This document shows, piece by piece, positions 3,303-33,604 of a stretch of DNA of 34,355 nucleotides. The stretch is from the UHGV virus genome UHGV-2160239; one strand, given 5' to 3'. Every line of letters begins with the position of its first letter. Positions within the stretch are counted from its first letter, which is position 1. The position numbers and the translations under genes are program-made. Below the pieces are notes generated by a model. That model was given only the letters and a program-made list of their open reading frames with translations, searched no databases and was not told the origin of the DNA. Source of the DNA: a virus.

Positions 3303-3330
3303 GGTTATTGGACAAAAAAAAGGGGGGGCA

Positions 3331-3534: not shown

Positions 3535-3749
3535 ACAGAAGGCGAATCACACGCAGGCATCGCCGCACACACATGAATTCCTTACCGACGCTGAAAGAAC
3601 TCATTCAACACGAGATCGCTGATTTCTGCGCAACGCTGGGGTCGCCTGGCGAACCGGAAACACCAGAAGCGATGCAGCGCGAACTCATGATGCGCATCGA
3701 TAACGTTTTTGACTTTTTCCTGAATAACAAAAGAGAGCAATCAACATGA
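3531..3749 (+). CDS. Hypothetical small Arg-rich protein
   Basis: 72 aa; ATGA overlaps on both sides; alternative in-frame start at 3573. Confidence 0.45.
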   Translation: MNRRRITRRHRRTHMNSLPTLKELIQHEIADFCATLGSPGEPETPEAMQRELMMRIDNVFDFFLNNKREQST

Positions 3750-3949
3750 ACAAAAAGACCTGGTTTCGCGCATACATGTGGGCGCTGGTATGCGTCCTCG
3801 TCTCTCTCATTCTGTATGCAGGACTACTCCCCCGAATGATTTCATCAGACAGCTCCTTCCTGGTATTGCTGGGCATTTTCATTGCCATGCTGTACCCGGC
3901 AGGCGTTGTTCGCCTTTTCAGTAAGTACATCAAGGAAATCAAACAATGA
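3746..3949 (+). CDS. Small two-helix membrane protein (possible NfeD/YqiJ-like partner of the SPFH protein)
   Basis: 67 aa with two hydrophobic stretches (WALVCVLVSLILYAGLL and FLVLLGIFIAMLYPAGVV); ATGA overlap with the downstream SPFH gene. Confidence 0.55.
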   Translation: MNKKTWFRAYMWALVCVLVSLILYAGLLPRMISSDSSFLVLLGIFIAMLYPAGVVRLFSKYIKEIKQ

Positions 3950-4807: not shown

Positions 4808-5143
4808 AGCAGCATCAGGATTTTTTAGTATGCCGTTCTCACAAAAAAACCGCTTGCCATGCCGCAATCAGTCAGGTTACATTTCCGCTGCACCTCATAA
4901 AACGGGTGCCGGGTTTCGCAGCCTGCTGACTAGCAAAGCGCACAACCGCGCCAGCGGTTTTTTTGTGCGTACTGTATTGCCACGTCTTTTTCGCACACGA
5001 ATTATGGCGGGGCGTACGGGGCCGACTTCGGTCGGGCCGGGTTCTTTGCTAGCCGGTACTGCGAACCTCGTACGTCTCGCCACCCACAGTTTCGCAGCTC
5101 TGGATGGTGAGTTTTCAAAACTTACTAGCAAAGAGGCCACACC

Positions 5144-5374
5144 ATGGCAAACCGCAAACAGCACCGCGCTATCGCGGAGCGTCGTCACATCCAGACTGAA
5201 ATCAACCGCAGACTTTCCCGCGCATCACGCGTCGCGCAAATCATGCACATCAATATGCTGCATGAGCGCAGCCACGCACTATCAAACATTTATTCCGCCT
5301 CTGTTTTCAGCTATCTGGCGGATGATCTGCGCGAGCTTCAGCAGCTCATCCAGCAGCAAAACCAACTCCATTAA
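5144..5374 (+). CDS. Hypothetical small protein upstream of A
   Basis: 76 aa; AGAGG RBS; basic, helical-looking sequence, possibly a regulator. Confidence 0.5.
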   Translation: MANRKQHRAIAERRHIQTEINRRLSRASRVAQIMHINMLHERSHALSNIYSASVFSYLADDLRELQQLIQQQNQLH

Positions 5375-8388: not shown

Positions 8389-9348
8389 ATGAAAATTTGT
8401 ATCGACGACGGCTCCACCAACATCAAGCTGGCATGGACTGAGAACGGCGAACGCCGCAACGCCATCAGCCCGAACAGCTTCAAGTCGGAATGGTCTGCGC
8501 CGTTCGGTGGCACGCAGCCCGCGAACTACATGCTTGATGGCGTGCGCTATGGTTTTGATCCGGTTAGCGATCGCTTTGTCCAGACGACCGACACGCAATA
8601 CCAGTACAGCGATGTGAATGTCATTGCCATTCATCACGCGCTGGTCAAATCAGGCATCACACCACAGGAGGTGGATGTGGTTGTCACCCTTCCACTGAGC
8701 GAGTATTTCGACACAAACGCACAACCGGACATGGCCAACATCAACCGCAAAAAAGCGAACGTTATGCGCCCGGTGGAATACCAGAACGGCGAAGCATTCA
8801 CTATCCGCAACGTACGGGTTATGCCTGAATCCATTCCGGCTGGCTTTAAGGCACTGGCTGACATGAGTCCGTTTGAATCCCTGCTGATTGTGGATTTAGG
8901 CGGAACCACGCTGGATGTGGCAAAGGTTCAGGGACAACTGGCAGGTATCAGCCAGGTGTTTTGCGATCCACACGTAGGCGTTTCCCTGATAGCCGATGCC
9001 GTACTGTCGGTGATGGCCACTAACGGTATGCGTACCAGTCACCATATCGCCAATACCATCATCGAACATCGCCACGATGAAGTCTGGCTGCGCCAGCACA
9101 TCCACAATGACGCGCATTACGACAGCCTGATGGCGGTAATTCGTGAAAAGGAAGAAACACTGAAACAACGCGTGATCCGCGCGCTGGCGGGTTTTTCGGG
9201 TTACGGGCAGGTGATGGTTGTCGGTGGAGGGGCGGAGATTGTGGCACCCGCTATCCGCGAAGCCTGCGGAGTTAATGCGACTTTCATCGCGGACGGGGTG
9301 CCACAGTTTGCTCTGGTTAATGGGCTGTACGCAATGGACAAGGAGTAA
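8389..9348 (+). CDS. parM: Actin-like plasmid segregation ATPase ParM/StbA
   Basis: 319 aa; N-terminal IDDGSTNIKLAW phosphate-1 motif, YSDVNVIAIHHAL, VMPESIPAGF, LIVDLGGTTLDVA phosphate-2 and VMVVGGGAE adenosine motif, collinear with plasmid R1 ParM as I recall it. Confidence 0.9.
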   Translation: MKICIDDGSTNIKLAWTENGERRNAISPNSFKSEWSAPFGGTQPANYMLDGVRYGFDPVSDRFVQTTDTQYQYSDVNVIAIHHALVKSGITPQEVDVVVTLPLSEYFDTNAQPDMANINRKKANVMRPVEYQNGEAFTIRNVRVMPESIPAGFKALADMSPFESLLIVDLGGTTLDVAKVQGQLAGISQVFCDPHVGVSLIADAVLSVMATNGMRTSHHIANTIIEHRHDEVWLRQHIHNDAHYDSLMAVIREKEETLKQRVIRALAGFSGYGQVMVVGGGAEIVAPAIREACGVNATFIADGVPQFALVNGLYAMDKE

Positions 9349-9352
9349 ACCA

Positions 9353-9664
9353 ATGACGACTCCAACCAGACGGATAAGTTTCTATCTGAAGCCCGCCGTC
9401 GTCAAGAACGAAGGCGAAGCATGCGCCTGGCTGGACAGCCTTACACCAGAAGCCCGCAAAAGCGGCCAACGCGTGGCTTTTCTGGCCGGGCTGGCACTAC
9501 TGAAAATGAATCCGGCAGAGGCTTACCGACTGGCTGCATGGGCTGATGATGAGGCGTTATCAGTGACACAAATCAGGACAGAACGCCCCGCGTCACAGCC
9601 AGTATCAACCGCACAGATAACCAGTCAGATGGCCGGAAATATCCGGGCGTTATTTCCCGAATAA
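9353..9664 (+). CDS. parR: ParR-like centromere-binding adaptor
   Basis: 103 aa immediately after parM (AAGGAG RBS); RRISFYLKP ... LDSL ... AFLAGLALL parallels the R1 ParR N-terminal ribbon-helix-helix region RTIAFKLNP ... LDSI ... ALTAGLAL. Confidence 0.7.
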
Positions 9665-9726
9665 CACAACATCAGGGCGTATCCGCCCTGATGACTTTAA
9701 CCCGGGAGCATAAACAAGGGGACACA

Positions 9727-11184: not shown

Positions 11185-11623
11185 TCCCCCTCAAACTAGG
11201 GCGATAATCGCGCATCGCCCTGCTGCACAATAGTGCACAAACTTGCACAATTTTTTTGAACGACTTTTTGCCCTTCCAGCCCCCGTGGCGGCTGGATCCG
11301 TCAAGGATCCGTGCGTGCACAAAAAAACGCGTTTTTTCTGCGCGCAGGTGACGGGGGAACAGCCCGCGTTTCAGGGGGTAAATAGCATTCCCTGAACGAT
11401 GTCGCAGCGACACAACAGAATGGCTGTATTTCTCACACTGAGCGTGAAAAAGGCGTGAGGGCTTTTGATTTGATGGGGTGACAGATAAGGCCGTCAAAAT
11501 CGCACTGAGGCGGCAGGAACATGCAGTCAACGCGGTGGGATTGCGTAAGAGCCTGACCGTCGATGATGGCGATAAGCTGGAAGACGTCGTGAAATTATCT
11601 GATTGATACAGGAGCTGGAGAGT

Positions 11624-11646
11624 CGGGGCATAAATTTTTTATGCCC
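11624..11646. terminator. Hairpin terminator downstream of portal gene Q
   Basis: GGGGCATAAA TTTTTTATGCCCC perfect inverted repeat with a central T/A run, just 3-prime of the Q stop on the minus strand; could act in both directions. Confidence 0.5.
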
Positions 11647-11674
11647 CGGCGAAGCAGCAGACAAGCGAAGCGCG

Positions 11675-12721
11675 TCAGGATGTGGGCTGGGTGTCCAGCA
11701 GTGCGTAAGGGTTAAAGCGGATCACCTCTTCGCCAAGCCAGTCATTGATATGCTTCATGGCCTCCATGACGGGCATCAGCTCGTTAATTGCGTAAACCCG
11801 CGCTGCCTTCTCCACATCACCAAACGCACTTTTTTCGCCCGGCATCGCCCCCATCAGTTGCGGCGGAACGCGGTGCGCAGCCAGCACATCATCACGGGAT
11901 GCCGCCTTAACATTCATGAACTCATCCTTTGCGGTGATCTGCTGGAACGGCAAAATTTGCACACCTTCTTTGCCCCCGTTGGGCGCGTGAATGAGCACGT
12001 TTTTAAATGCACCACCACCACGCGCACCCTGTAGCGTTTCCTTCAGGGAGTCCATGCTTTCGCGGTTTACCTGCGCTGCACCGATGTAGATGATGCACCC
12101 GGCGTGGGATCCATTGTCGTAGTACAGTTTTCTGAACATGTCCGCCGAATGAGACAGGCTGGCCGAGAGTAATGCGCCAAGATATTCCGGCATGCCGTAA
12201 ATTTCCTGGTTAATGTCCGGATTCATCAGGTGGCACACTTTGCCAGGGCGAAACTGAAACGCGTCGTTGCCATCCTGCACATACCACCATGATTCAAGAT
12301 CGCTTCCGCGCCGCATGTATTTCGCCAGTGCGTGCCGTAATTTAAGTGGTTCGCCGAGCATATTGCTCCGAAGCTCAAGGAATGCGTTACCGAACACAAA
12401 CCAGTCCAGCGCCAGCGCCGAGAAATCCTGCCGGGAAAGCAGCGGGTGCGGGATGTAGCAACCGAGTAATACATTGCGCTTAAAGTAAAGCGCAGACTGA
12501 TGCCAGGACGTTTGCCGGGCGGCTCTTGCCAGACCGTACCAGTCCACCGGGGTTTCATACCACCGCCCGTTATCAGCACAGTACATATTGTCCAGCAGGT
12601 CATGCCCGGTCAGGCGGTAAGGACCATCAAATGTGAATGCACTGAGCGACGATTCTTTCCTGAGCGCATCAGCGAGATCAATGCGTGAACTCATGCGCAC
12701 TTTTTTATTTTTTCTGCTCAT
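11675..12721 (-). CDS. Q: Portal protein (P2 gpQ-like)
   Basis: 348 aa; start overlaps the terminase stop; divergent from the capsid operon exactly as P2 Q-P; size matches gpQ. Confidence 0.85.
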   Translation of the reverse strand: MSRKNKKVRMSSRIDLADALRKESSLSAFTFDGPYRLTGHDLLDNMYCADNGRWYETPVDWYGLARAARQTSWHQSALYFKRNVLLGCYIPHPLLSRQDFSALALDWFVFGNAFLELRSNMLGEPLKLRHALAKYMRRGSDLESWWYVQDGNDAFQFRPGKVCHLMNPDINQEIYGMPEYLGALLSASLSHSADMFRKLYYDNGSHAGCIIYIGAAQVNRESMDSLKETLQGARGGGAFKNVLIHAPNGGKEGVQILPFQQITAKDEFMNVKAASRDDVLAAHRVPPQLMGAMPGEKSAFGDVEKAARVYAINELMPVMEAMKHINDWLGEEVIRFNPYALLDTQPTS

Positions 12722-14472
12722 CAGAACTCCATAACCGTGAAACGCTCGTTTTCTCCTTCGCCGCCAATTGGTTCGTTAATGACAGCAAGCATGGTTGCCC
12801 ACGCAAGGTCGCCGTGGCTGATCCCCCTCGCGCGGTCCGTTTCGTAAGTGATAAAGCCGCCCGGTGTTTTCACCTTACGCACGGCGTTAAAGGCCGCGAC
12901 CAGCTCGCGTTCGGCGCGATCGTATTCCCACCGCCCGGCACGCATTATTTGCAGCATTTTCAGTACCAGCGACCGTTTTGATGACAGCGTGAAGGTGTAC
13001 GGAATAGCAGCAGGGAAAAAACGTTTCACTATCTGATAAACAGCCTCCCCGTTCCCGCCCGTCACATCAATGCCGATGTGTTCCACGTTGTAGCGACACG
13101 TGAACTCCTCAATGACTCTGGCCTGTTCTTCAAACTCCAGCCCCTGAACGCGTCGCGTCTCCACCGTTCGAAAACGGCCACCAGGAACAGCCGGAGGAAC
13201 CACCACGGACACCGCGCCACTGTCGCCGTTTCCACTGCTGCCGTTTGCGTCATACCCAATCCATACCGGACGATTCCCCATCGGGCGGGGAGCAAAAGGT
13301 TTCCAGTCTTTCCAGTCGTCGTATCCGTCAACGCCGCAGCCAATCAGGATATTCAGGTTAAATGCCGATTCCCCTTCGCGGACAAACTCACACATATAGA
13401 GATTGCGGAACTCGTCTTCGGTGTTTTCATCACGAATTTCATCAATATCGGTGTGTTTCCAGCCGTGATTAACCACATCTTCCAGCGTGACAATTTGCCG
13501 CCACGTCCGGTCGGGGCAGATAAGCCCGTTATGCAGCGTTTTCCAGTCCACAGAAAAACGCTGGCGTTTATGCGCGGCCTTTTTCTCGTTCCAGCGGTCG
13601 CCGTTCCAGTAGACGTATGCCTCGTGCGTTTCGGTTGATGGCGTGGAGAAGTAGGTGCGTCGCAGCCCGCTGAGGGTTGCCATAGCGCCAGCCACCTTGC
13701 GCAGTTCAGCAAAGCGACTGACCCAGAAAAATTCATCAAAATAAAAATTGCCTGTGTAGGACTGTGCCGTCGCAGCAGAAGTGCCGAGAAAATGCAGCTC
13801 TGCGCCGTTGGAGAGGATGATTTTATCGCCCCCTTTCAGCTCCACATCAACTTCAGATGCAGCCTTCTGAATAATGCTTTTAAACTGGAACGCCTGACGA
13901 CGCGACGCAGACAAAAAAATCTGGTTACGCTGGTAAGGTTGCGCCACATCGTCACGCAGCGCCATCAGCAGTGCTTCCTGTGCAAAATACCAGGTCGCCC
14001 CAATCTGTCGGGATTTCAGGATCATCCTGTTACGTATCCCGGCTTCCCTGCAAAGGGTCAGGGAGTCAAACCAGCCCCGCTGATGCCACTCCAGCCTGCT
14101 GATGATTTTTTCCCGCAGTGCGGCAATCTGTTCCGGCGTGAAATGATTTTTAAGCTTTTTCGCCCGGCCTTTCTTTCCTGTGGCCGTCGCATCCGGCTGG
14201 TCATCATGCAGTTTTTTAAGCTGCCGGGTCAGCAGGTCTATTTCCTTAAAGTCACCGCCTGTTTTATTCTGTTTTTCAGTAAGCTGGATGAGGCGCGCAT
14301 CGATGGACTGCGTGACACGCTGCACGGGTGGCGTTTCATCCCACTGGTCGCGTTTTTTCCACGCATAAATCGTGTTCGGGTTTATTCCCATCAGACGTGA
14401 TATTTCAGCGGGCGGATAACCCTGCCAGTAAAGTTGTCGCGCACGCTGGCGCACAAAAGCGTCCTGAATCAT
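12721..14472 (-). CDS. P: Terminase large (ATPase) subunit (P2 gpP-like)
   Basis: 583 aa; N-terminal HTH-like segment YWQGYPPAEISRLMGINPNTIYAWKKR, then ATPase and nuclease regions; size and position as P2 P. Confidence 0.9.
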   Translation of the reverse strand: MIQDAFVRQRARQLYWQGYPPAEISRLMGINPNTIYAWKKRDQWDETPPVQRVTQSIDARLIQLTEKQNKTGGDFKEIDLLTRQLKKLHDDQPDATATGKKGRAKKLKNHFTPEQIAALREKIISRLEWHQRGWFDSLTLCREAGIRNRMILKSRQIGATWYFAQEALLMALRDDVAQPYQRNQIFLSASRRQAFQFKSIIQKAASEVDVELKGGDKIILSNGAELHFLGTSAATAQSYTGNFYFDEFFWVSRFAELRKVAGAMATLSGLRRTYFSTPSTETHEAYVYWNGDRWNEKKAAHKRQRFSVDWKTLHNGLICPDRTWRQIVTLEDVVNHGWKHTDIDEIRDENTEDEFRNLYMCEFVREGESAFNLNILIGCGVDGYDDWKDWKPFAPRPMGNRPVWIGYDANGSSGNGDSGAVSVVVPPAVPGGRFRTVETRRVQGLEFEEQARVIEEFTCRYNVEHIGIDVTGGNGEAVYQIVKRFFPAAIPYTFTLSSKRSLVLKMLQIMRAGRWEYDRAERELVAAFNAVRKVKTPGGFITYETDRARGISHGDLAWATMLAVINEPIGGEGENERFTVMEF

Positions 14473-14626
14473 TGCTCCCCCTGAGTAATTACAGGAAGAT
14501 TACCCGCGCGCGAAACCGTTCTCCTTAACCCCCTGTTCTGGCCATTTTCTTACAACAAAAGCCCTTTGTATCAGCCTGTTACGCTTTGCCATCATGACTG
14601 AAGAACCAGTCAGAGGGGCAAAAACT

Positions 14627-18896: not shown

Positions 18897-19300
18897 AGCT
18901 CTGGCCCACGCTGGGTGTCGCTTTCCTTCTGATTGCCGCATGGGGAACATCCATGCGTCTGTCGTGGTCGCTGGGTCGGGAGAACACCAGAAACGAAGCG
19001 CAGGCCAGCACCCTGAAAAGTACCGTCGACACACTGAATATCATCAGCGCCGGGGTACAGGATATGCAGCAGGTGCTGGCGCAACTCCGCGTGGAAAATC
19101 AACAGCGAAATCAGGACGGAGAGGCCAGACGTGAACAGCTACGCAACGATATTGCAAAAGATGAATGCGCCCACGCTTTGCCTGACGCTCGTTTTACTGA
19201 CAGGTTGCGCAGGCACGCAGAACGCGCCACGGCCAGCGCCGTCAGTCCGGCTTATACCGCAGACGCTGACCATACCGGTAATGCCTCCCCCCTTCCCTGA
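18893..19300 (+). CDS. Inner-membrane spanin (i-spanin, LysB/Rz-like)
   Basis: 135 aa from ATG 18893 (start overlaps the endolysin stop); N-terminal TM helix LWPTLGVAFLLIAAW then a charged coiled coil. Confidence 0.6.
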   Translation: MKLWPTLGVAFLLIAAWGTSMRLSWSLGRENTRNEAQASTLKSTVDTLNIISAGVQDMQQVLAQLRVENQQRNQDGEARREQLRNDIAKDECAHALPDARFTDRLRRHAERATASAVSPAYTADADHTGNASPLP

Positions 19301-22358: not shown

Positions 22359-22959
22359 TTCACTGTTACCGCCATCAGCCAGCAATTTCATGCGTTGTGC
22401 CGAAGCTGTCGGAACGCGCATTACAGACATCCCGGTAGACCTCAACACGCTGTGGTCGCCGGACACCTGCCCGGTGCATCTGCTGCCTTATCTCGCCTGG
22501 GCGTTTTCCGTTGACCGCTGGGATCGCAACTGGCCGGAAGAGACAAAGCGACAGGTGATTCGTGATGCATGGCTGATACACCGACACAAAGGGACCATCA
22601 GCGCACTGCGAAGAGCCGTGGAACCTCTCGGCTACCTGATTGAAGTAAAGGAGTGGTGGCAACTCAACGAGGAGCCGGGAACATTTCGCATTGTTGTCGG
22701 AGTACTTGATCAGGGCATCACCGATGAAATGTATCAGGAACTTGAGCGCCTTATTGCGGATGCAAAACCAGTAAGTCGCCATCTGACGGGGCTGGCGATC
22801 AGCCTGAGTGTGAACGGAAAGATTTTCGTTGGTACGGGATGCTATCACGGCGATGCCCTGACGGTTTATCCCTACACCCCGGAGTCCATTATTGTCGAAG
22901 GGGATTATTTCCCTGCCCCGGCCATTCATTTAATTGATAATCTGAGAGTAAACGCATGA
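22351..22959 (+). CDS. I: Baseplate protein I
   Basis: 202 aa from ATG 22351; stop overlaps the H start. Confidence 0.8.
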   Translation: MSNSLLPPSASNFMRCAEAVGTRITDIPVDLNTLWSPDTCPVHLLPYLAWAFSVDRWDRNWPEETKRQVIRDAWLIHRHKGTISALRRAVEPLGYLIEVKEWWQLNEEPGTFRIVVGVLDQGITDEMYQELERLIADAKPVSRHLTGLAISLSVNGKIFVGTGCYHGDALTVYPYTPESIIVEGDYFPAPAIHLIDNLRVNA

Positions 22960-24728
22960 CAGTGAAATACTACGCCATTCTGACTAATCAGGGCGCGGCA
23001 CGACTGGCTAACGCGACGATGCTCGGCAGTAAGCTGAATCTGACGCAAATGGCCGTTGGTGATGCAAATGGTGTGTTACCAACACCAGACCCTGCACAAA
23101 CAAAACTGATTAACCAGAAACGCATTGCACCGCTGAATCTTCTGAGTATTGACCCGAACAACCAGAACCAGATTATCGCGGAGCAAATCATCCCTGAGAA
23201 CGAGGGCGGATTCTGGATCCGTGAGATTGGTCTTTATGATGATGAAGGCGTACTCATTGCGGTGGCAAACTGCCCGGAAACGTACAAACCGCAGTTGCAG
23301 GAAGGCAGTGGACGCACCCAGACTATCCGCATGATTCTGGTTGTCACGAACACCGAAGCCATCACGCTGAAAATCGACCCGTCTGTGGTTCTGGCAACCC
23401 GCAAATATGTAGATGACAAAATCTCAGAGCACGAACAATCACGACGTCACCCGGACGCCTCGCTGACCGCAAAAGGTTTTACTCAGTTAAGCAGTGCAAT
23501 TAACAGTGAATCAGAAACACTGGCCGCAACACCGAAAGCGGTTAAGACTGCATATGACCTGGCTGACGGGAAATATACTGCCCAGAACGCCACCACGACA
23601 CAAAAAGGCATTGTTCAGCTCAGTAGCGCCACGAACAGCACATCTGAAACGCTGGCTGCAACGACAAAAGCTGTTAAGGCAGCATACGACCTTGCTAACG
23701 GGAAATATACCGCTCAGGACGCGACTACGGCACGAAAAGGCATTGTTCAGCTCAGTAGCGCCACAAACAGCACATCTGAAACGCTGGCTGCAACGACAAA
23801 AGCTGTTAAGACGGTAATGGATGAAGCGAACAAAAAAGCGCCATTAAACAGCCCGGCACTGACCGGAACGCCAACAACGCCAACAGCGCCAAAGGGTACT
23901 AATAATACTCAGATCGCAAGCACGGCTTATGTTATGGACGCGATTACCGCGCTTGTAGACTCATCACCTGACGCACTGAACACGCTGAACGAGCTGGCGG
24001 AGGCGCTGGGTAACGACCCGAATTTTGCGACCACCATGACTAACGCGCTTGCGGGTAAGCAACCGAAGGATGCCACCCTGACGGCGCTGGCAGGACTTGC
24101 TACAGCAGCAGATAAACTCCCTTATTTTACAGGGGCAGATCGTGCCGCGTTAACTGCACTGACAAGTGTTGGACGCGCCATTATTGGCAAGACCAGCACA
24201 CAGGGGGTTCTTGATTACCTTGGTTTGGGGGGAGGTTCGGCGCTTCCTGTTGGTGTACCAGTTCCGTGGCCCTCTGCAACCCCGCCAACGGGCTGGCTGA
24301 AATGCAACGGCGCTGCCTTTGATAAGGTGAAATATCCAACTCTTGCCAAAGCATACCCATCAGGAAAACTGCCTGATTTACGCGGTGAGTTTATTCGTGG
24401 CTGGGATGATGGACGCGGTGTAGACAGTGGACGATCACTACTCAGTAGTCAGGATGCAACTTTTATTCGTACAGCGTTACAGGATTATTACGGGGTTGAT
24501 ACAACAACCTCTGTCAAGGTGGGGATAGCATTTGCTTCCGCCGATAAAGTACAAACAAGCGGGATACCTGCTAATTCTAAAGCTGGCGACAGCAGTAACT
24601 ATGTTCCGGCTTCGTCTGATAACTCCATTACGGGAACACAGAGAACAGCAGAAGACGGTTTTAATGGTGCATGGATATCAGTGCGACCACGTAATACATC
24701 ATTTAATTATATTGTGAGAGCTGCATAA
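22956..24728 (+). CDS. H: Tail fibre protein (P2 gpH-like) with exchangeable C-terminal receptor-binding domain
   Basis: 590 aa; conserved N-terminus MTVKYYAILTNQGAARLANA; internal 44-aa tandem repeats; C-terminal GWLKCNGAAFDKVKYPTLAKAYPSGKLPDLRGEFIRGWDDGRGVD typical of shared side-fibre tips. Confidence 0.9.
   Translation: MTVKYYAILTNQGAARLANATMLGSKLNLTQMAVGDANGVLPTPDPAQTKLINQKRIAPLNLLSIDPNNQNQIIAEQIIPENEGGFWIREIGLYDDEGVLIAVANCPETYKPQLQEGSGRTQTIRMILVVTNTEAITLKIDPSVVLATRKYVDDKISEHEQSRRHPDASLTAKGFTQLSSAINSESETLAATPKAVKTAYDLADGKYTAQNATTTQKGIVQLSSATNSTSETLAATTKAVKAAYDLANGKYTAQDATTARKGIVQLSSATNSTSETLAATTKAVKTVMDEANKKAPLNSPALTGTPTTPTAPKGTNNTQIASTAYVMDAITALVDSSPDALNTLNELAEALGNDPNFATTMTNALAGKQPKDATLTALAGLATAADKLPYFTGADRAALTALTSVGRAIIGKTSTQGVLDYLGLGGGSALPVGVPVPWPSATPPTGWLKCNGAAFDKVKYPTLAKAYPSGKLPDLRGEFIRGWDDGRGVDSGRSLLSSQDATFIRTALQDYYGVDTTTSVKVGIAFASADKVQTSGIPANSKAGDSSNYVPASSDNSITGTQRTAEDGFNGAWISVRPRNTSFNYIVRAA
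23468..23820 (+). repeat. Tandem 132-bp (44-codon) repeats inside H, about 2.7 copies
   Basis: Units starting near 23468, 23600 and 23732; copies 2 and 3 nearly identical at DNA level (KGIVQLSSATNSTSETLAATTKAVK...). Confidence 0.7.
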
Positions 24729-25330
24729 TGGATAACGCGATATTGAATAATGAACTTATTGCCGTACAGGCAGGAAGCCTCATCGTTTACAACTATGACA
24801 GTGAGACGCGGGAATATATTTCCTCATCAACTGAATATCTTGCTGTGGGAGTCGGTATTCCGGCATATTCTTGTTTAGACGCACCTGGTATACATAAGGC
24901 TGGTTATGCAATCTGCCGTTCTGTGGATTTAAATTCATGGGAATATGTGCCAGACCATCGCGGTGAAATCGTCTATAACACCGAAACGGGTGACGCCAAA
25001 GAAATCACAGCACCGGGCGAATATCCTGAAAACACAACTACTATCGCCCCGTTAACGCCATACGATAAATGGGATGGTGAGAAATGGGTGACAGACACTG
25101 AGGCACAACACAGTGCCGCAGTAGAAGCGGCAGAAGCACAGCGCCAGTCACTGATTGATGCTGCTATGGCTTCCATTAGTCTGATTCAGTTGAAATTGCA
25201 GGCCGGGCGCAAACTGACGCAAACAGAAACAACCCGACTAAACATCGTGTTGGATTACATTGACGCGGTGACGGCAACAGACACCAGCACCGCGCCAGAT
25301 GTCATCTGGCCTGAACTGCCGGAGGCGTAG
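24728..25330 (+). CDS. G: Tail fibre assembly chaperone (P2 gpG / Tfa-like)
   Basis: 200 aa; C-terminal LDYIDAV ... TSTAPDVIWPELP motif characteristic of Tfa proteins; start overlaps the H stop. Confidence 0.85.
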   Translation: MDNAILNNELIAVQAGSLIVYNYDSETREYISSSTEYLAVGVGIPAYSCLDAPGIHKAGYAICRSVDLNSWEYVPDHRGEIVYNTETGDAKEITAPGEYPENTTTIAPLTPYDKWDGEKWVTDTEAQHSAAVEAAEAQRQSLIDAAMASISLIQLKLQAGRKLTQTETTRLNIVLDYIDAVTATDTSTAPDVIWPELPEA

Positions 25331-25553
25331 GCCATTCAATATCTGGAGCACTGGAAATATCGCCCAGTTCCAGTGCATCCAGATAATCCAGCCACAAATT
25401 ATATTGCGTCAGTTCCTCACCTTTCAGACGACCAACAGCTGCTTTACCTGGCCATTGCCTTCTGTTCATGTATTCGTTGGTCTGATTAATCAGTTGCTGT
25501 TTTTTGATGGGGCCGACTAAAGACAGTCGCGACAGGAAACAACTGGCAATAAT
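25302..25553 (-). pseudogene. Remnant of a second, inverted tail fibre assembly gene (C-terminal part only)
   Basis: Minus-strand frame reads ...RLKGEELTQYNLWLDYLDALELGDISSAPDIEWPTPPAVQAR, a Tfa C-terminal motif; ends tail-to-tail with and overlapping the G 3-prime end; N-terminal portion absent. Confidence 0.5.
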
Positions 25554-25641
25554 TTACGGCACTGGTACATCGACGATTTATCGTTACCACCCCGCAGGAG
25601 AATCAAGCGGAACAATTGAGAAGAGTCAGGAAACAAAATAA

Positions 25642-25668
25642 CCGCTAATCTGGCCATTAACGGTTTTT
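25642..25668. terminator. Putative bidirectional terminator between the fibre genes and the U 3-prime end
   Basis: Quasi-palindrome CCGCTAATCTGGCCATTAACGG flanked by an A-run upstream and TTTTT downstream, so it could terminate both convergent transcripts. Confidence 0.4.
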
Positions 25669-25676
25669 GTGTTAAA

Positions 25677-26171
25677 TCAGAACAGCCCTTTAACGGAACT
25701 GGCCGCGCTGTTAAGGGATGATGTCACCTTATCTTTGAAGCCGGACAGCATATCACTGAACGATGAGGATTGCAGGCGCTCCCGCAAATCCTCATCACAA
25801 CGTTCAAGAGTCAGTGAAAATTCTATCTTTTTCGCCTTACCATAGCGATCAAACTCGGAGCGGGTCGTATTCGTTTCAGTCAGCACATACATGCCGTAAA
25901 TCTGCCCGACACCATCAATCAGAGGCCAGGGGCGTCCTGTATATGCCTGCGTGGTCAGCAACGAAAGCGACACTTCGCCACCTGTAATTTCAGGATAAAG
26001 CACGCCGGAAAGCACAATGCGATCATCACCTGCACCTATATACTGCCAGCTTGCTGAACGGTTAACGCGTTCATTTTTCACATGCCGCCAGCTTTTGTTT
26101 TGCTGTAACTGCTGATGCGGCAGTGTGCGCAGCTCAAAAACAAACATGCCGTAGATCATCATCATGACCAT
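25677..26171 (-). CDS. U: Tail protein U (P2 gpU-like)
   Basis: 164 aa; SWRH..N.RVNR ... LSGVL.PE(I/L)TGG pattern matches gpU as I recall it; last gene of the minus-strand tail operon. Confidence 0.8.
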   Translation of the reverse strand: MVMMMIYGMFVFELRTLPHQQLQQNKSWRHVKNERVNRSASWQYIGAGDDRIVLSGVLYPEITGGEVSLSLLTTQAYTGRPWPLIDGVGQIYGMYVLTETNTTRSEFDRYGKAKKIEFSLTLERCDEDLRERLQSSSFSDMLSGFKDKVTSSLNSAASSVKGLF

Positions 26172-26177
26172 GACTCC

Positions 26178-29021
26178 TCAATCTTTATCGTAAAAACTGC
26201 CACGTCCGGCACGGGCGCGCCGTTCCATCTCTGCCCTGACCATTTCACCGACCAGTTTCGCCAGTTCGCGGGGATTCTGCGTAACAACGTTATGCAGATG
26301 AACATGAATTTCACCGCCAAATCTGGAGACAGCAGGCTCCCGATTACGGGAAGCTGCAGGAACTGATGCCACTGGCGATCGTATGGCCTCCGCCACTGGG
26401 CGGGAGCTGGCCGTAACAACAGGGACCAGCGCCGGAGGCAGCGGAGCCGGGACCACGGGTGTGATCTTAATTGCGGGGGCAGGCTTACTGACCTGCGCAA
26501 TCTTCCGCTCCTGCCACTCCCCACGAACAGCAAGTGCGCGGGGCAGGTTCTTAAAGACAATATCGCCAGGGCCAATGCGTTTTTTCGTCTCATCAACCAG
26601 CTTACCTGTGTTATCAGCAATCTTGCTGAGTCTGCGTAGCGTACCGGTATTGCTGTCTGTGAGCGGTTTGTTGTCTTTGGGTTTATCGCCTCCGGTGCCA
26701 TTGCCATTTTCCGTAGACTTCGGCGGATTGATTTTCGCAATGTCTCCCTGAAACAGAGCAACCTTGTCCTGAAGAATGGCTGCACGCTGCGCGTCTTCGA
26801 TTTTCTTTCTCGCCATTTCCGCTTCATCCGGAAGCACACCGAGTTTTTCAAGTATCCACGCCAGCGTATCCAGCAACATTTTTGCAGGCGTCAAAACAAG
26901 CTGTAACGCGCCACCAAGAACGTTACCGAATACCTCGCCAGCACTGGCACATTTATCCAGCGTTTCCTTGCTGGACTCCATCGGTGACAGCAGCGATTTA
27001 AACCAGTTAAACACCTGGCTGATCCCGCTTCCGATTACGTCAAAAACAGGGCCAAACCGTTCAAAGGTTTCGCGCAACGGGGTCAGCCTTTCCATAATCC
27101 CGCTGAACACCCCGGCAAAAAATGCCCTGATGGGATCCCAGTATTTCCAGATAAGAATGGCAGCTCCGGCAAGCGCAGCCACGATAAGACCAACCGGACT
27201 GAACAGCGCTCCGATAGCACCTCCCAGCAAAGAAACGGAACCCGTCACCATTCCCCATAGTGCTGGCAGGAGCCTGACAGCATTCATTGATCCGGTCAGG
27301 AGGGAAAAACCAAGACGCAGTTTTGCCAGTGGGCCAGCAAGCACACCAAGAGCAAGCGACAACGAGCCTACGGTTGCAGTCACTGCCAGCAGCGCACCGC
27401 CTGCAATCAGTAGCTGGCGCGTCAGTACAGGATGGGCCTGCGCCAGTGCCGTCACCTTTGAGACCACCCGCGTTAGCCACTGCGTGACAGAACGCAGCGA
27501 ACCGTCAACCAGATCACTGATGCGAATACGAAGACCTTCCCATGCGCTGTCGAGATTTTTCAGGTCGCCATCAAGGTTGTCGGCCATAACCTTTGCTGTG
27601 CGTTCAGCCTCACCGCGTGCGCCCTCAAGTTCTTTTCTCAGTTTGGGTAAGGAACCGTCACCCGCCGCATCAACGAGCGCCATAAACGATGTGAAAGCCT
27701 CTTCCCCGGCGATGTCCTTAAAGAAGGATACCCGGTCAACTTCCCCGTATTTGCGGGTAGCTTTATAAAGGTCAGCCAGCAGATCTTCCATCGGGCGCAT
27801 TTTGCCCCCGGCATCCGAGACGGACACGCCCAGCTCTTTCAGAGCTTCTGCCGCCGCCTTTGGCGGTGATGCCAGACGAGCCAGGCTGGCACGCATTGCC
27901 GTCCCGGCATCACTCCCTCTGATGCCCATATTCGCCAGCACGCCAGCCATCGCTGCGGCCTGCTCCAGCGATATTCCCAGTTTACCCGCCACCGGACCTG
28001 CATATTTCATGGTTTCGCCCAGTGCGCGAAGGTCAGTGTTGGTACGGGTAAACGCTGCGGTGAGTGTGTCACCGACCCGGTCCATCTGGTCAGCAGAAAG
28101 GCCGAACTGCGTCAGGATATTTGAGCCAATATCTGCCGTCTCGCCGAGATCCATACCGCCAGCCGTTGCCATGCTCAGCACGCCGGGAAGCGCAGCCTGA
28201 ATGGCCTGCGGAGTGAAGCCAGCCATTGCAAGAAATGCCTGTCCACTGGCGGCATCGCCTGCGGTGAACTGCGTTTCAGAGCCAAGTTTTAACGCCTGCT
28301 CACGCAGCGCCTTAAACTGCGGGCTGTTTTTGTCGATTCGCGTCAGCGCCTGAACGCGGGACATCTCTTTCCCGAACCCGATCGCAGGCTGCAAAAAACG
28401 CCCGGCGGCATAACCGCCAGCCGCTGCCGCACCAATTGCCAGCGCACCACCTGTTTTCAGTTTTCCCGCAGTTTCCTGCGCGCGCGAATACCGCTCACGC
28501 GCCCGCGTTACACGCGCAAGCGCCTGCCGTTCGCGTTCAAGCTGGTTGTTGTACTGTTCGGTGCGTCTGATGGCCTGCTGGATGGTGTTATCGCTGCCTG
28601 TCAGGGAAATGCCGTGGCGTTTCAGCTCTCCGCCAAGCTCCCGCATTTTCTGAATTTCCCGTGTGCGCGATTCATTCAGGCGTTCAAGCCGGGTGCTTAA
28701 CTGCTGCATCAGCTTTTGCTGTTTTTCGCTGAGCACTGTACCCGTGCGTTGTAACTGATTAAGGGCGTTAAGCTGGCGTCGTGCTTTTACGATGCCCGCA
28801 TCCGCTTTACTGACAGCGTCACGGGCGCGCTCAAATGAACGCGCCTGACGCTCGAGATTTTTGATCGCCCCCTGCGTTCGCTGGATAGAGTCACCAAACT
28901 GCCCCATCAGGCGGCGGGCGTTTTCGGCAGGCCGGGTCAGCCTGTCAACGGCGCTGAAAGCGACCCGGATATCAAGAGTCTTCATTGTCTGCATTCCCGC
29001 TGCGAAGTGCCGCCCGCTCAC
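26178..29021 (-). CDS. T: Tail tape measure protein (P2 gpT-like)
   Basis: 947 aa; coiled-coil N-terminal region, central Gly/Ala-rich hydrophobic repeats; between E and U. Confidence 0.9.
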   Translation of the reverse strand: MSGRHFAAGMQTMKTLDIRVAFSAVDRLTRPAENARRLMGQFGDSIQRTQGAIKNLERQARSFERARDAVSKADAGIVKARRQLNALNQLQRTGTVLSEKQQKLMQQLSTRLERLNESRTREIQKMRELGGELKRHGISLTGSDNTIQQAIRRTEQYNNQLERERQALARVTRARERYSRAQETAGKLKTGGALAIGAAAAGGYAAGRFLQPAIGFGKEMSRVQALTRIDKNSPQFKALREQALKLGSETQFTAGDAASGQAFLAMAGFTPQAIQAALPGVLSMATAGGMDLGETADIGSNILTQFGLSADQMDRVGDTLTAAFTRTNTDLRALGETMKYAGPVAGKLGISLEQAAAMAGVLANMGIRGSDAGTAMRASLARLASPPKAAAEALKELGVSVSDAGGKMRPMEDLLADLYKATRKYGEVDRVSFFKDIAGEEAFTSFMALVDAAGDGSLPKLRKELEGARGEAERTAKVMADNLDGDLKNLDSAWEGLRIRISDLVDGSLRSVTQWLTRVVSKVTALAQAHPVLTRQLLIAGGALLAVTATVGSLSLALGVLAGPLAKLRLGFSLLTGSMNAVRLLPALWGMVTGSVSLLGGAIGALFSPVGLIVAALAGAAILIWKYWDPIRAFFAGVFSGIMERLTPLRETFERFGPVFDVIGSGISQVFNWFKSLLSPMESSKETLDKCASAGEVFGNVLGGALQLVLTPAKMLLDTLAWILEKLGVLPDEAEMARKKIEDAQRAAILQDKVALFQGDIAKINPPKSTENGNGTGGDKPKDNKPLTDSNTGTLRRLSKIADNTGKLVDETKKRIGPGDIVFKNLPRALAVRGEWQERKIAQVSKPAPAIKITPVVPAPLPPALVPVVTASSRPVAEAIRSPVASVPAASRNREPAVSRFGGEIHVHLHNVVTQNPRELAKLVGEMVRAEMERRARAGRGSFYDKD

Positions 29022-29243
29022 GCCAGCTAACCACTTCGCCGGGCGTCATCATGAAGATTTCGGCGGGCGACCAGTTAAAAATGGCGGCAATATCCGCCAC
29101 CAGATCTTCGATGTGCTCAAAGCACACCAGGGTGATTACGCTGCCGTCTCCTGCACGCTCTTCGCGCCAGAGTCTGGCTCGCTCATAAAATTTACAGCCA
29201 CAGCGCACAACTGAATAAAATCGCGTGACGACATTTTTTTAAT
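28972..29243 (-). CDS. E-prime extension frame (translated only after a -1 frameshift from E)
   Basis: Open -1 frame beginning at the A7 slippery run (plus-strand T7 at 29234-29240) inside E and ending just inside the T start; arrangement analogous to P2 E/E+E' and lambda G/GT. Confidence 0.45.
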
Positions 29244-29504
29244 CATCACTTCATCCAGTCGTGGCGAAGTCACGCGAGGCAACAGCGTGAACATGGTATC
29301 CGCTTTCAGATTCAGCACATCAGACAGCGACAAACCTCGCAGGGATCCAGCCTGCTCAATAGCCCCGGTGATCTCCACATACGTGATTTTTTCGCCGCCA
29401 CGCTCAATTGGCCGGGAAAGTTTTACGCCGCGCTCGCTGGTTTCTTTCGCAGTATCAGCAACCACCACAGCGTTTTCAGTATCGGTATTTTTCGTCTCTT
29501 TCAT
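29136..29504 (-). CDS. E: Tail assembly chaperone (P2 gpE-like)
   Basis: 122 aa between the tube and tape measure genes; contains the in-frame AAA AAA A slippery run near its 3-prime end. Confidence 0.8.
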   Translation of the reverse strand: MKETKNTDTENAVVVADTAKETSERGVKLSRPIERGGEKITYVEITGAIEQAGSLRGLSLSDVLNLKADTMFTLLPRVTSPRLDEVMIKKMSSRDFIQLCAVAVNFMSEPDSGAKSVQETAA

Positions 29505-29558
29505 CAGAAAACTCCTTTCAGTCAGAGGCGACGCACTGCGCCGCCTGCATATTACTTA

Positions 29559-30071
29559 TCAGCCAAGCCCAAGCGCGGAACGGATGCGATCGGGCACAAT
29601 GTCCTTGCCGTCCTTCCGGTAAATGAAGTTCAGCAGGTCAATCTCCCACAACGGGCGATCGTTAACACTCAGCTTGTAGTAGGTGTTTTTAATGGCGTAA
29701 GTGTGTGATGTGGCTTCGCCCTGTTTGGCTTCTCCCATATCAATTTCCGTCACACGTCCGCGCATTTCGACTTCATACAGGTCGCTTTCTGCATCGGTGT
29801 AGTATTCACCCGCAAAACGCAGCAGCGTGCCGTCAATCGTGCCGCCATACTTAAGGAACAGCTCACGAACTGCGCCCCCCATGACAAAGCTTGCATCAAG
29901 CGCGGAGTCGTCCAGACCGAGATCAATACTTACCGCCCCCATCATGCCACCACCCCGGTAGCTGTCGGTTTTGCGCGTCAGCTTAGGCAGAGTGACGGAC
30001 GTCACCTTACCCACTTCGTTTTCACCATCCACAAACAGCGTAAAAAAGCGAAGATGTTTTGGCACAGCCAT
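29559..30071 (-). CDS. FII: Tail tube protein (P2 gpFII-like)
   Basis: 170 aa; LPKLTRK..YRGGGM.GA ... DLGLDD pattern matches gpFII as I recall it. Confidence 0.9.
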   Translation of the reverse strand: MAVPKHLRFFTLFVDGENEVGKVTSVTLPKLTRKTDSYRGGGMMGAVSIDLGLDDSALDASFVMGGAVRELFLKYGGTIDGTLLRFAGEYYTDAESDLYEVEMRGRVTEIDMGEAKQGEATSHTYAIKNTYYKLSVNDRPLWEIDLLNFIYRKDGKDIVPDRIRSALGLG

Positions 30072-31255
30072 CAGGCACCTCCCAACACCGCAAATGCGGG
30101 TTCAAAGTATTCATCAGTAAACGTCTGGTAAAGCTCCATGTCTTCCAGTGGCGGAACGGGCGTATATTTGTAGCGAATACGCACACGCCCCTGACGTAAA
30201 TCCGTGGTGCTGTTATCCACCACGTCATACCAGCACTCCGCGCCAATCAGTTTCCCGGCAGTAACCAGCGAATCCAGTTTTGCCCTGATGGCACTGATAA
30301 CATCCTTCACGTTCGCAGGCGTCAGTGGACTGTCGATGGTTTCAAACTGCGCTTCCGCAATTGAATCAGCCAGCACCTGTGCGGTTCGGGTATACACCTC
30401 AAAGATGTAGGCGTTCGTTTCCGGTGTGCGATTGCCCCAGAAGCGGAACCCGTTGCGACGAATAATGGTCGTGATTTCTTTGTTGTTGAGGCTGTTGGCA
30501 TCACTGTCTTCGGCCTGCAACGACCAGAACACATGCCTGGACATTCCCAGCACATTTTTAACCGGAACGTTGGACAGCGATTTGTGCCAGCCCTGCTCAT
30601 GGTCAATGTACGCACGAAGGCCGCACGCATAGGCAGGCGCGGGTAACGTTTCGTTTTCGCCACTTTTCGGGTTGTAGGCGATGAAGTCCGGCCATAAGAG
30701 CATCACTTCACGTTCGTTGAATTTCTGGCGGTAGGTAATCGCTTCAGCCATCGTGTTACAGCCGTGACATGAGGCATACACAAACGCGCGCAGTTTACCC
30801 GCAATCACGCACAGGGATTTTGTCACCGCCTCCGTGTCCAGCTCCGGCGCGGCCAGAATACGCGGACGGTATCCGATGCTTTCATCCTGCTCTGCAACAA
30901 GCAGCGCATACATCCCCGTATAGCTGCCGTCATCCTCAGAACCACCGATAACCAGTTGATCCTGCGTCTTACCGTCTTCTTCTTTGTGTTCAGCCACGCG
31001 AACGACGATCACCTTTGTGCTCACCTGGTCTGCGATGGCCTTAAGCGCACGATAAAGCGTCCCCGTTGTTCCGCATTTTCCCAGCACGTCATTGACGCGG
31101 GTCAGCAGTGTGGGCTTGTTCAGCGGGAACAGCTTCGCGTCCGCATCATCCGCCGTTGCCACGATACCGATAACGCTGGAATCAACATCGTTAATCGCTG
31201 TTACCAGGTCGGTATTTTCCGTAACACGGGCACCATGAAAACGAGTTTCACTCAT
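30071..31255 (-). CDS. FI: Contractile tail sheath protein (P2 gpFI-like)
   Basis: 394 aa; blocks FPLNKP, LRAF.YASC.GC, QGWHKSLSNV, RRNGFRFWGNRT, YTRTAQV, YKYTPVPPLE collinear with the sheath family. Confidence 0.9.
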   Translation of the reverse strand: MSETRFHGARVTENTDLVTAINDVDSSVIGIVATADDADAKLFPLNKPTLLTRVNDVLGKCGTTGTLYRALKAIADQVSTKVIVVRVAEHKEEDGKTQDQLVIGGSEDDGSYTGMYALLVAEQDESIGYRPRILAAPELDTEAVTKSLCVIAGKLRAFVYASCHGCNTMAEAITYRQKFNEREVMLLWPDFIAYNPKSGENETLPAPAYACGLRAYIDHEQGWHKSLSNVPVKNVLGMSRHVFWSLQAEDSDANSLNNKEITTIIRRNGFRFWGNRTPETNAYIFEVYTRTAQVLADSIAEAQFETIDSPLTPANVKDVISAIRAKLDSLVTAGKLIGAECWYDVVDNSTTDLRQGRVRIRYKYTPVPPLEDMELYQTFTDEYFEPAFAVLGGA

Positions 31256-31412
31256 AGCTTCAGCCCCTTGTATCCGTTAAATGATTCGGCAACAATCATC
31301 ACCCACCACGCGCGTAATCTCACCCCTGCGCCGTTCTCCCGACCCAGCGACAACAAAAAGCAGTAACCCCCTCCGCACGCACATGCGACCATGCCGCACA
31401 GGGAGGGAACAG

Positions 31413-32522
31413 ATGACCGACACCACCATGCAATTGCTCAGTCAGGGCACAGACCCCGTGAAAATGCCGGATTTTGATATTCTTGCGGAGGGTAAAACGC
31501 TGTCAGGCGTGGCAGAGCGCCTGATGAGCCTGTCACTGACCGACAACCGGGGATTTGAGGCGGACCAGCTCACCATCACGCTGGATGATGCGGATGGTCA
31601 GTTGCAGCTACCGCCACGGGGCGCGCGCCTGACGGTTCTCATTGGCTGGAAAGGAGAACCGCTGACAGAAAAAGGCACTTACATTGTTGATGAAATCGCT
31701 CACGAAGGACCGCCGGACAGGCTGACAGTTTCAGCCAGAAGCGCAGATTTTCGGGATGAATTTAACGTTAAACGTGAGGTGTCCTGGCATGATGTGACCG
31801 TTGAGCGTGTGGTATCCGCCATCGCTCATCGGTATGGTCTGAAACCGCAAATCAGCGAAATGCTGATGGATATTGAAATCGACCACGCCGACCAGACCGA
31901 AGAAAGCGACATGTCCTTCCTTACGCGCATGGCGGAAATGCTGGGCGCAATCACTACGGTAAAAAGCGGTAATCTGTTATTCATCATGCCAGGCGGTGGC
32001 GTGAACGCGCAGGGCCAGCCGTTGCCCTCGTTCGCCATCACACGCAGCAGCGGCGATCGCCATCAGTTCCGCATTGCTGACCGAGAGGCGTATACGGGGG
32101 TACGCGCTTACTGGCTTGATCTTAATTACGGGAAAAAGAAAAAAGTCAGCGTGAAACGCCGCAAACCGACAAAACCCAAAAAGGAGAAAAGCAGCAGCCG
32201 TGAAGGTGATTATATGGAAGGCGCGGAAGGCAATGTGTTTGTGTTACGCAAGACTTATCAGAACGAGCAGGCAGCAAGACGCGCAGCGGCGGCAAAGTGG
32301 CAGCAGCTACAACGCGGAGCCGCATCATTCTCCATCACGCTGGCGCGTGGACGCGCAGAACTCTATCCCGAAATGCATGGCACGGTAGCAGGCTTTAAAA
32401 GCGATATTGATAATCAGGACTGGATTATTGCAAAAGCCGAGCACACCATTGATAACAGCGGCTTTACCACGCAGCTTGAGCTTGAAGCAAAAATCCCGGA
32501 ATGGATAGCAGAAACAGAGTGA
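31413..32522 (+). CDS. D: Tail / late control protein D (P2 gpD-like)
   Basis: 369 aa from ATG 31413 (GGGAGGG RBS); size and position next to ogr as P2 D; on the strand opposite to FI-U here. Confidence 0.8.
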   Translation: MTDTTMQLLSQGTDPVKMPDFDILAEGKTLSGVAERLMSLSLTDNRGFEADQLTITLDDADGQLQLPPRGARLTVLIGWKGEPLTEKGTYIVDEIAHEGPPDRLTVSARSADFRDEFNVKREVSWHDVTVERVVSAIAHRYGLKPQISEMLMDIEIDHADQTEESDMSFLTRMAEMLGAITTVKSGNLLFIMPGGGVNAQGQPLPSFAITRSSGDRHQFRIADREAYTGVRAYWLDLNYGKKKKVSVKRRKPTKPKKEKSSSREGDYMEGAEGNVFVLRKTYQNEQAARRAAAAKWQQLQRGAASFSITLARGRAELYPEMHGTVAGFKSDIDNQDWIIAKAEHTIDNSGFTTQLELEAKIPEWIAETE

Positions 32523-32564: not shown

Positions 32565-32825
32565 ATGTTCCGTTGTCCGCTTTGTGGCGCATCTGCCCGT
32601 ATCCGCACCAGTCGTTCGGAAAATGATTCAAACACCGTACGGAAAAAATATTACCAGTGTAACAACCTGGAATGCGGCATAAGTTTCTCAACACTGGAAG
32701 CTTTCCATAAATTCACATCGAAACACGCCCCCGGCGTTCACTCTTCAGAAGGTATCCCGTGGAATGAGCTGCCAGCTTCGCACAGGGGAAACAATCAGAT
32801 GAGCTTGCCTTTACCTCAGAATTAA
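32565..32825 (+). CDS. ogr: Late gene transcriptional activator, Ogr/Delta zinc-finger family
   Basis: 86 aa; MFRCPLCGASARIRTSR ... YYQCNNLECGISF gives the Cys4 zinc finger of Ogr; strong GGGAGG RBS. Confidence 0.85.
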   Translation: MFRCPLCGASARIRTSRSENDSNTVRKKYYQCNNLECGISFSTLEAFHKFTSKHAPGVHSSEGIPWNELPASHRGNNQMSLPLPQN

Positions 32826-33276: not shown

Positions 33277-33406
33277 TGCTACCCTCACAAATGAGGGCAC
33301 CATACATAAGCAATAGACATAACAGATCGATGCAATAAATCCGATCGATAAAAACGATCGATTTGTTATCATATCGGCAGCAGTAACCACACAAGAGGTG
33401 CCGCAA

Positions 33407-33604
33407 ATGACGCAAAATGTACGATGCAAAAATTGCAACAAACTACTTGCCCGCGCCTCATTTCACTACATTGAAATAAAATGTCCGCGCTGCAAAACAC
33501 TTAACCAGATAACGAGAGCCATTGAGCACCCCACACGCATGAGGAGTTATGACCGTGGGGATCGCAACCCAGCATCAACCAGTACATACACCGGAACACA
33601 CTAA
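33407..33604 (+). CDS. com: Com-like zinc-finger translational regulator (Mu Com family)
   Basis: 65 aa; RCKNCNKLLARASFHYIEIKCPRCKTLNQ is closely similar to Mu Com (CKNCNKLL ... IEIRCPRCK); 3-prime end overlaps the start of the methyltransferase gene as com overlaps mom in Mu. Confidence 0.75.
   Translation: MTQNVRCKNCNKLLARASFHYIEIKCPRCKTLNQITRAIEHPTRMRSYDRGDRNPASTSTYTGTH

Follow-up and report, generated by a model that had tools for sequence, protein, structure and literature searches.

The stretch of DNA analysed here (the window) is the 34,355-nucleotide virus genome UHGV-2160239. Homologues of FI, FII, E/E', T, U, D and Ogr were identified in it by Pfam matches and by tblastn against P2 and 186 (32-48% identity), which make up the contractile-tail late gene set of the P2 family (Peduoviridae). 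The genes of the tail region are as follows.

22956-24728, plus strand: H, upstream of G
24728-25330, plus strand: G, tail-fibre assembly (Pfam Caudo_TAP, 4e-32), the final gene of a long rightward late operon
25677-26171, minus strand: U, tail protein (Phage_P2_GpU, 5.5e-39; 46% identity to P2 U), last in the inverted block
26178-28985, minus strand: T, tape measure protein (PhageMin_Tail, 7e-58)
28972-29208, minus strand: E' frame (Phage_P2_GpE, 2e-12), in the -1 frame relative to E
29136-29504, minus strand: E chaperone (Phage_TAC_7, a weak match of 1.8e-4)
29559-30071, minus strand: FII, tail tube (Phage_tube, 7.5e-47)
30071-31255, minus strand: FI, tail sheath (Phage_sheath domains; 46% identity to P2 FI), first in the inverted block
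31413-32522, plus strand: D, baseplate hub or 'late control D' (Phage_GPD, 6.8e-17; 48% identity to P2 D)
32565-32825, plus strand: ogr, zinc-finger late activator (Ogr_Delta, 1e-15)

Several of the gene starts required attention. The T reading frame called mechanically begins at a GTG at 29021 (26178-29021, minus strand). The T start is probably the ATG at 28985, which gives a length of 2808 nt, the same as in the P88 homologue. A candidate slippery heptamer for the E/E' frameshift, A AAT TTT, is located at 29193-29187. The ATG of D at 31413 directly follows the sequence GGGAGGG, and both the Shine-Dalgarno sequence and the ATG are conserved among relatives. A longer D reading frame starting from the ATG at 31281 runs over the control region upstream of D and is not conserved; we regard it as an ORF-calling artefact. 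The small 'hypothetical protein' that some pipelines place in the spacer was rejected on the same grounds of overlap with the control region and lack of conservation.

In the annotated genomes of P2 and 186, FI-FII-E-E'-T-U-D-ogr are all on one strand, and the F (J) operon, which runs from FI to D under the promoter pF, reads through ogr. All seven genes of this operon have homologues in the window at 32-48% identity, and the window shares with P2 and 186 the E/E' frameshift layout and the location of ogr after D. The difference lies in orientation. In the window U, T, E/E', FII and FI occupy the minus strand (25677-31255) and D and ogr the plus strand, with 157 bp separating the ATG of FI (31255) from that of D (31413). 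An earlier reading made from the sequence alone had described these strands, this 157-bp distance and the co-directional order of FI to D in P2, and our ORF map, Pfam matches and the P2 and 186 annotations confirm all three. By tblastn, gene order outside FI-U agrees with that of P2 and 186, at amino-acid identities of 32-62%, and the FI-U proteins, at 32-47% identity to those of P2, are no more divergent than the neighbouring late proteins. FI-U is therefore inverted in place relative to P2. The P2-type organization, a co-directional FI-to-D operon under pF, does not apply here, since the inversion leaves D outside the FI operon. As a result, D needs a promoter of its own.

The left boundary of the block does not resemble an inversion endpoint. 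U had been thought to adjoin G, but the two genes are separated by 346 bp that hold remnants of a second tail-fibre assembly gene and of a DNA invertase gene, followed by a hairpin.

25302-25504, minus strand: C-terminal remnant of a second tail-fibre assembly gene (Caudo_TAP, 2e-15), inverted, from an invertible fibre cassette
25519-25641, plus strand: last 40 codons of a Gin/Hin-type DNA invertase, containing the helix-turn-helix (HTH_7, 2e-5), with the catalytic domain deleted
25640-25665, either strand: hairpin with T-runs on both strands, from a terminator scan, located between the stop codons of the invertase gene and U

Positions 25049-25504 of the window align with positions 3001-3456 of 500465-2 (L002), after which the alignment jumps to position 4580 and resumes in the last 131 nt of the invertase gene. 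About 1.1 kb, corresponding to 3457-4579 of 500465-2, is absent from the window. The invertase gene is intact in P88 and 500465-2. The jump in the alignment and the two remnants indicate that the window prophage has lost the invertible alternative-fibre cassette found between G and U in P88 and 500465-2. The hairpin is also present in P88 and 500465-2, and it is probably a bidirectional terminator at the meeting point of the convergent rightward and FI-U operons. The interval 25500-25676, which the sequence-only reading had marked as one of two inversion breakpoints, is instead composed of the invertase-gene remnant and the terminator and bears no inversion scar.

Judged by its sequence, the window is a P88-like (Xuanwuvirus/Gemsvirus-type) P2-family prophage and an ordinary member of that group. 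A megablast search with 24.7-32.9 kb found the same region at 93-96% nucleotide identity in P88, P884B11, 500465-2, 520873, 503458, PhiR44_2, Chuche and Citrobacter phiSM. P88 (Xuanwuvirus), P884B11, 500465-2 (Gemsvirus), phiSM, PhiR44_2 and Chuche, which are 93-96% identical to the window over 25.5-32.9 kb, share with it the order U-T-E'-E-FII-FI on the minus strand and D-ogr on the plus strand, as well as the spacer and its dyad described below. The interval between G and U is where they differ from it: there they have an invertible alternative fibre cassette and a DNA invertase that is intact. Some also have cargo genes between D and ogr. The P88 and 500465-2 annotations place U to FI on the strand opposite D. 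The same order is found in SEN4/5, phiT5282H (Novemvirus), 3LV2017 (Reginaelenavirus) and, in a partial sequence, Serratia KSP20; in SEN5 (Senquatrovirus) it is present at 63% D identity. Throughout the P88-like clade as we tested it (Xuanwuvirus, Gemsvirus, Senquatrovirus, Novemvirus, Reginaelenavirus and KSP20), FI-U is antiparallel to D-ogr, with a spacer of 127-195 bp between them.

Larger samples gave the same picture. IMG/VR loci were retrieved with a D-protein profile and scored on the U-to-FI genes detected and their strand relative to D and ogr; all 80 loci whose D is 64-99% identical are inverted. In the nearest co-directional group (Elveevirus type, D 51-53% identical), in which U was scored against D in all loci and FI/FII where present, none of 80 loci is inverted. 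FI to D are also co-directional in Cartapus, ST512-KPC3phi13.2, phiCTX and RSA1. A 901-bp probe for the FI/D junction matched 1380 of 5426 complete E. coli genomes, about a quarter, and was contiguous in 1358 of them; in the complete chromosome of E. coli ETEC1738, from a pig, the junction is 100% identical to that in the window. P88 and phiSM can be induced and form plaques (PMC5285337; PMC6456863), so the inverted arrangement is functional. The inverted order is thus ordinary, inherited and fixed in a large P88-like branch, and being the norm of its lineage it is not noteworthy in this genome.

These observations bear on three explanations that would make the inversion something other than an inherited trait. 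If the block had inverted in place recently, in this genome or strain alone, an order unlike that of P2 and 186 would be accounted for. Such an event is extremely improbable: many isolated phages and the 1380 E. coli genomes have this order as well, the order persists down to 64% D identity, and the clade is monophyletic. The sequence-only reading had implied such a genome-specific event and had itself named a shared order in reference genomes as the observation that would speak against it; the reference phages and the IMG/VR loci supply that observation. Its in-place inversion stands relative to the P2 and 186 order and falls as an unusual or recent event.

The second explanation is that FI-U is a programmed segment flipped by a Gin/Hin-type invertase or another recombinase. 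The invertase gene, truncated here, does abut the U end of the block. However, the window invertase lacks its catalytic domain, SEN5, phiT5282H and 3LV2017 keep the same order with no invertase, and the co-directional Cartapus has an invertase at the same place. The invertase therefore cannot be tied to the FI-U inversion. A search for inverted repeats, suggested earlier as a check of the breakpoints at 25500-25676 and 31256-31412, was run across 25000-32000, and none links the two boundaries of the block; the sole repeat pair that spans it (19 nt, 84%) falls within the coding sequences of U and D. A search for invertase crossover sites, based on the annotated 186 site and on repeats in the P88 and 500465-2 cassettes, gave nothing usable. 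A synthetic probe of the P2-style junction, in which the U 3' end is joined to the D start, was contiguous in none of the 1412 genomes that contain its halves, against 1358 genomes with the standard junction. Neither crossover sites nor a functional invertase with both orientations was found, and the locus thus failed every tested property of a site-specific invertible segment of the Gin/Cin/Hin/Pin type. We consider a programmed switch a very remote prospect.

The third explanation, an assembly artefact at the two junctions, had been raised as a possible refutation. We found nothing in its favour, and its probability is close to nil, given the identity of the junction with the ETEC1738 chromosome, its contiguity in 1358 independent complete genomes and its presence in several isolated functional phages. 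For practical purposes, recent inversion, programmed inversion and misassembly are all excluded.

The distribution of the inverted order also gives its polarity. Quick neighbour-joining trees, built without support values, were made for three proteins encoded in the block (FI, FII and U) and one encoded outside it (D). In all four, the genomes with the inverted order make up one clade from which every co-directional genome is absent, and the window groups with the named P88-like members. Together with the lineage-wide order, this monophyly is most simply read as one old inversion, a shared derived character of the clade. Formally, an inversion cannot be told apart from two rearrangement steps with an equivalent outcome at the root of the clade. 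The opposite polarity, with the divergent order ancestral and the co-directional order of P2 derived, is quite improbable. Nothing specific favours it beyond the dependence of any polarity on the choice of outgroup, while phiCTX and RSA1, distant members of the P2 family, are co-directional and the rooted trees put the inverted genomes in a single clade apart from the co-directional Escherichia and Klebsiella phages.

The other end of the block, the spacer between FI and D, contains a putative control region. Its elements, and a comparator elsewhere in the window, are as follows.

14535-14556, either strand: comparator dyad, an exact match to GTTCT-N12-ACAAC, in the divergent P/O (terminase/scaffold) spacer
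31256-31412, either strand: divergent FI/D control region, 157 bp, alignable across the clade (spacer 127-195 bp)
31295-31300, minus strand: predicted FI-ward -10, GATGAT, at bases 44-49 from the dyad centre (clade consensus GATgAT)
31333-31354, either strand: Ogr-type dyad GTTCT-N12-ACAAC, centred at 31343.5, of the TGT-N12-ACA class with one mismatch
31387-31392, plus strand: predicted D-ward -10, GACCAT, at bases 44-49 from the dyad centre (clade consensus aAcCAT)

TGT-N12-ACA is the class of site found in the Ogr-dependent late promoters of P2 (PMC3931495, citing Christie & Calendar 1985, Julien & Calendar 1995). A search for exact TGT-N12-ACA found no site in the late spacers of the window because one half-site often reads TCT in this lineage, and the motif was recovered only through the alignment of relatives. 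When 22 diverse FI/D spacers were aligned, little was conserved beyond a central dyad, GTTGT-N12-ACAAC in the clade, and short blocks on either side of it. The window dyad has TCT instead of TGT in one half-site. Its exact sequence, GTTCT-N12-ACAAC, occurs twice in the window against 0.19 expected, and the two occurrences are in the FI/D and P/O spacers. P88 and SEN5 likewise have the dyad in just these two divergent spacers. In the P/O spacer, the hexamers TAATCT (minus strand) and CATCAT are located about 44-50 nt either side of the dyad. A dyad-like site in the i-spanin gene (18964-18985) was considered as an equivalent of the pV promoter and rejected, since it lies in coding sequence without a convincing -10 at the right distance.

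The dyad is present in all 75 distinct FI/D spacers, where it lies 77-88 nt from the FI ATG and agrees at 8 or more of the 10 half-site positions. Upstream of FI in P2, 186, Cartapus and ST512-KPC3phi13.2, the distance to the dyad is 78.5-85.5 nt. This match in distance indicates that the old pF promoter travelled with FI. The -10-like hexamers of the window are weak, and a promoter scan found no sigma-70 consensus promoter in the FI/D spacer, as expected for activator-dependent promoters. The spacer conforms to the sequence definition of an Ogr/Delta/B-dependent late promoter (a dyad ~55 nt before the start site, a weak -10 and no -35), with one core mismatch and with start sites that are predicted. 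The conservation of the spacer could partly be due to something other than promoters.

The position of the dyad also bears on the possibility that the FI-U module was taken from another contractile-tail lineage and inserted backwards. Phage genomes are mosaic, and T and E are rather divergent from P2 (32-35% identity), as such a replacement would have it. On the other hand, FI, FII and U resemble their P2 counterparts (44-46% identity) about as closely as the flanking late proteins do, their trees separate the same clade as the D tree, and a pF-type dyad is found at the ancestral distance from FI. We therefore consider module replacement improbable. We favour a single ancient inversion, fixed across a Peduoviridae clade of at least five named genera, in which the block moved with its late promoter and the FI/D spacer works like P2 pP/pO, and would give this reading a probability of about 85%.

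The geometry of the spacer suggests how D may have acquired a promoter. In P2, pP and pO share a single annotated activator site and start 55.5 nt to each side of it, and 186 is annotated alike. The FI/D spacer has the same geometry as P2 pP/pO (186 p12/pV), in which one Ogr/B site lies midway between divergent late genes, flanked on each side by a -10 at about 44-50 nt and a start site at about 55 nt, and a similar arrangement with the same dyad type is found in the P/O spacer of the window itself. Both FI/D promoters in the window are predicted, unlike P2 pP and pO. The P2 equivalent of the FI/D site is pF, which is unidirectional; its -10 starts at base 45 and its mapped start site is ~56 nt from the dyad centre. 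By analogy, the start sites in the window would be at ~31288 on the minus strand and ~31399 on the plus strand. Ogr may bind the FI/D dyad and D may be transcribed from the spacer; the dyad probably drives FI-U leftward and D(-ogr) rightward. The earlier notion that D was split from its operon holds, and 31256-31412 does look like the divergent late control region proposed for it.

In the reading that we favour, the sequence of events would be as follows. One endpoint of the inversion would have been upstream of the activator site of pF and the other at the junction of the U and D genes. The inversion would have set the symmetrical Ogr-binding dyad of pF beside D, leaving one activator site centred ~55 nt from two divergent start sites, as in P2 pP/pO. 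D, with ogr downstream of it in the window, would now be driven by a second promoter across the same dyad, and FI-U transcription would stop at the bidirectional terminator facing the H-G operon. With moderate confidence, we propose that the FI/D spacer is a second bidirectional Ogr-dependent control region made by the inversion, in which a single dyad activates both FI-U and D(-ogr). Late operon membership has also been reshuffled in the Stenotrophomonas phage Smp131, in which TGT-N12-ACA-type sites are kept upstream of the new units (PMC3931495). That is a different rearrangement in a different lineage.

The inverted arrangement has been in public records for years and is in that sense already known. 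In the openly searchable literature, we found no comment on the FI-U inversion or on a shared FI/D promoter in work on P88, phiSM, SEN4/5 and KSP20, in surveys of P2-like diversity or in work on hotspots. The shared-promoter model is a small new proposal drawn from sequence comparison, and not a new kind of system.

The value of our findings lies mainly in annotation. P2 is the wrong template for very common prophages of E. coli, Klebsiella, Salmonella, Citrobacter, Enterobacter and Serratia. Annotators of P88-like genomes should not mark an FI-U block running antiparallel to D as a rearrangement or misassembly, and D should be annotated from the conserved ATG (31413 here), neither from the in-frame ATG upstream nor with a spurious 'hypothetical protein' split off into the spacer. 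The conserved single dyad with its mirror-image -10s also provides a small testable prediction on how late control adjusts to the inversion of an operon. If the model is true, this clade would have swapped the P, O, V and F units of P2 for two divergent pairs, P/O and FI/D. It would also be a natural demonstration that Ogr-type activators act from either face of one site, and the inversion of an essential operon would have been tolerable because the activator site is symmetrical.

A further dyad-like site and several accessory modules were found in the window, listed here in window coordinates:

4890-4964, isrK (Rfam, at gathering score)
5000-5087, C4 antisense RNA (Rfam, at gathering score)
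5144-5374, 'Derepression protein family' ORF
8389-9348, ParM actin-like segregation gene
9649-9670, palindromic GTTATTTCCCGAATAAC element
18964-18985, dyad-like 22-mer
28972-29208, E' frame
29193-29187, A AAT TTT, candidate heptamer for -1 slippage
33017-33157, hok/gef-family toxin ORF (Pfam, 5e-7)
33398-33604, Mu Com-like zinc-ribbon ORF
33549 to the window end (34355), N6/N4 DNA methyltransferase gene

The 22-mer, located within the i-spanin (DUF2570) gene, is identical at 21 of 22 positions, 12-nt spacer included, to the Ogr-type activator dyad between FI and D, in inverted orientation. No such match is expected by chance. The related phage P88 has a comparable site, matching its own FI/D dyad at 18 of 22 positions. 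The R-S-V tail genes could be transcribed from a late promoter at this internal site (S and V are not separated by an intergenic gap in the window), but no good -10 element was found at the right distance from it.

In the tail chaperone genes, the E' frame overlaps E, and the candidate slippery heptamer in the overlap differs from that of P2 (T TTT TTG). The tape-measure protein more likely starts at ATG 28985 than at the mechanically called GTG 29021.

The 'Derepression protein family' ORF follows isrK and the C4 antisense RNA. Together they constitute a P1 immI-like antisense-controlled antirepressor module (4890-5374) in a P2-family prophage. The ParM gene lies in the early region, and the palindrome shortly downstream of it is present in P88 as well.

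Many close relatives carry 1-4 kb of additional DNA between D and ogr, compared with 42 bp in the window (11589-12922 in phage 500465-2, L002; also relatives L009, L013, L016, L019, L021, L022, L025 and L028), and this interval looks like a cargo hotspot. Immediately downstream of ogr is the hok/gef-family ORF, annotated as MokW-like in relatives; no Sok-type RNA was detected at the Rfam gathering score. The Com-like ORF overlaps the start of the methyltransferase gene, a layout reminiscent of Mu com-mom translational control. One relative's methylase homologue is labelled 'TagO'.

The segment beside U (25302-25641) is a degenerate invertible tail-fibre cassette. Its Gin/Hin-type invertase gene is reduced to the final 40 codons, and the second, inverted Tfa (tail-fibre assembly) gene to its C-terminal part. 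Relative to phage 500465-2, ~1.1 kb has been deleted, and the fibre is therefore locked in one form.
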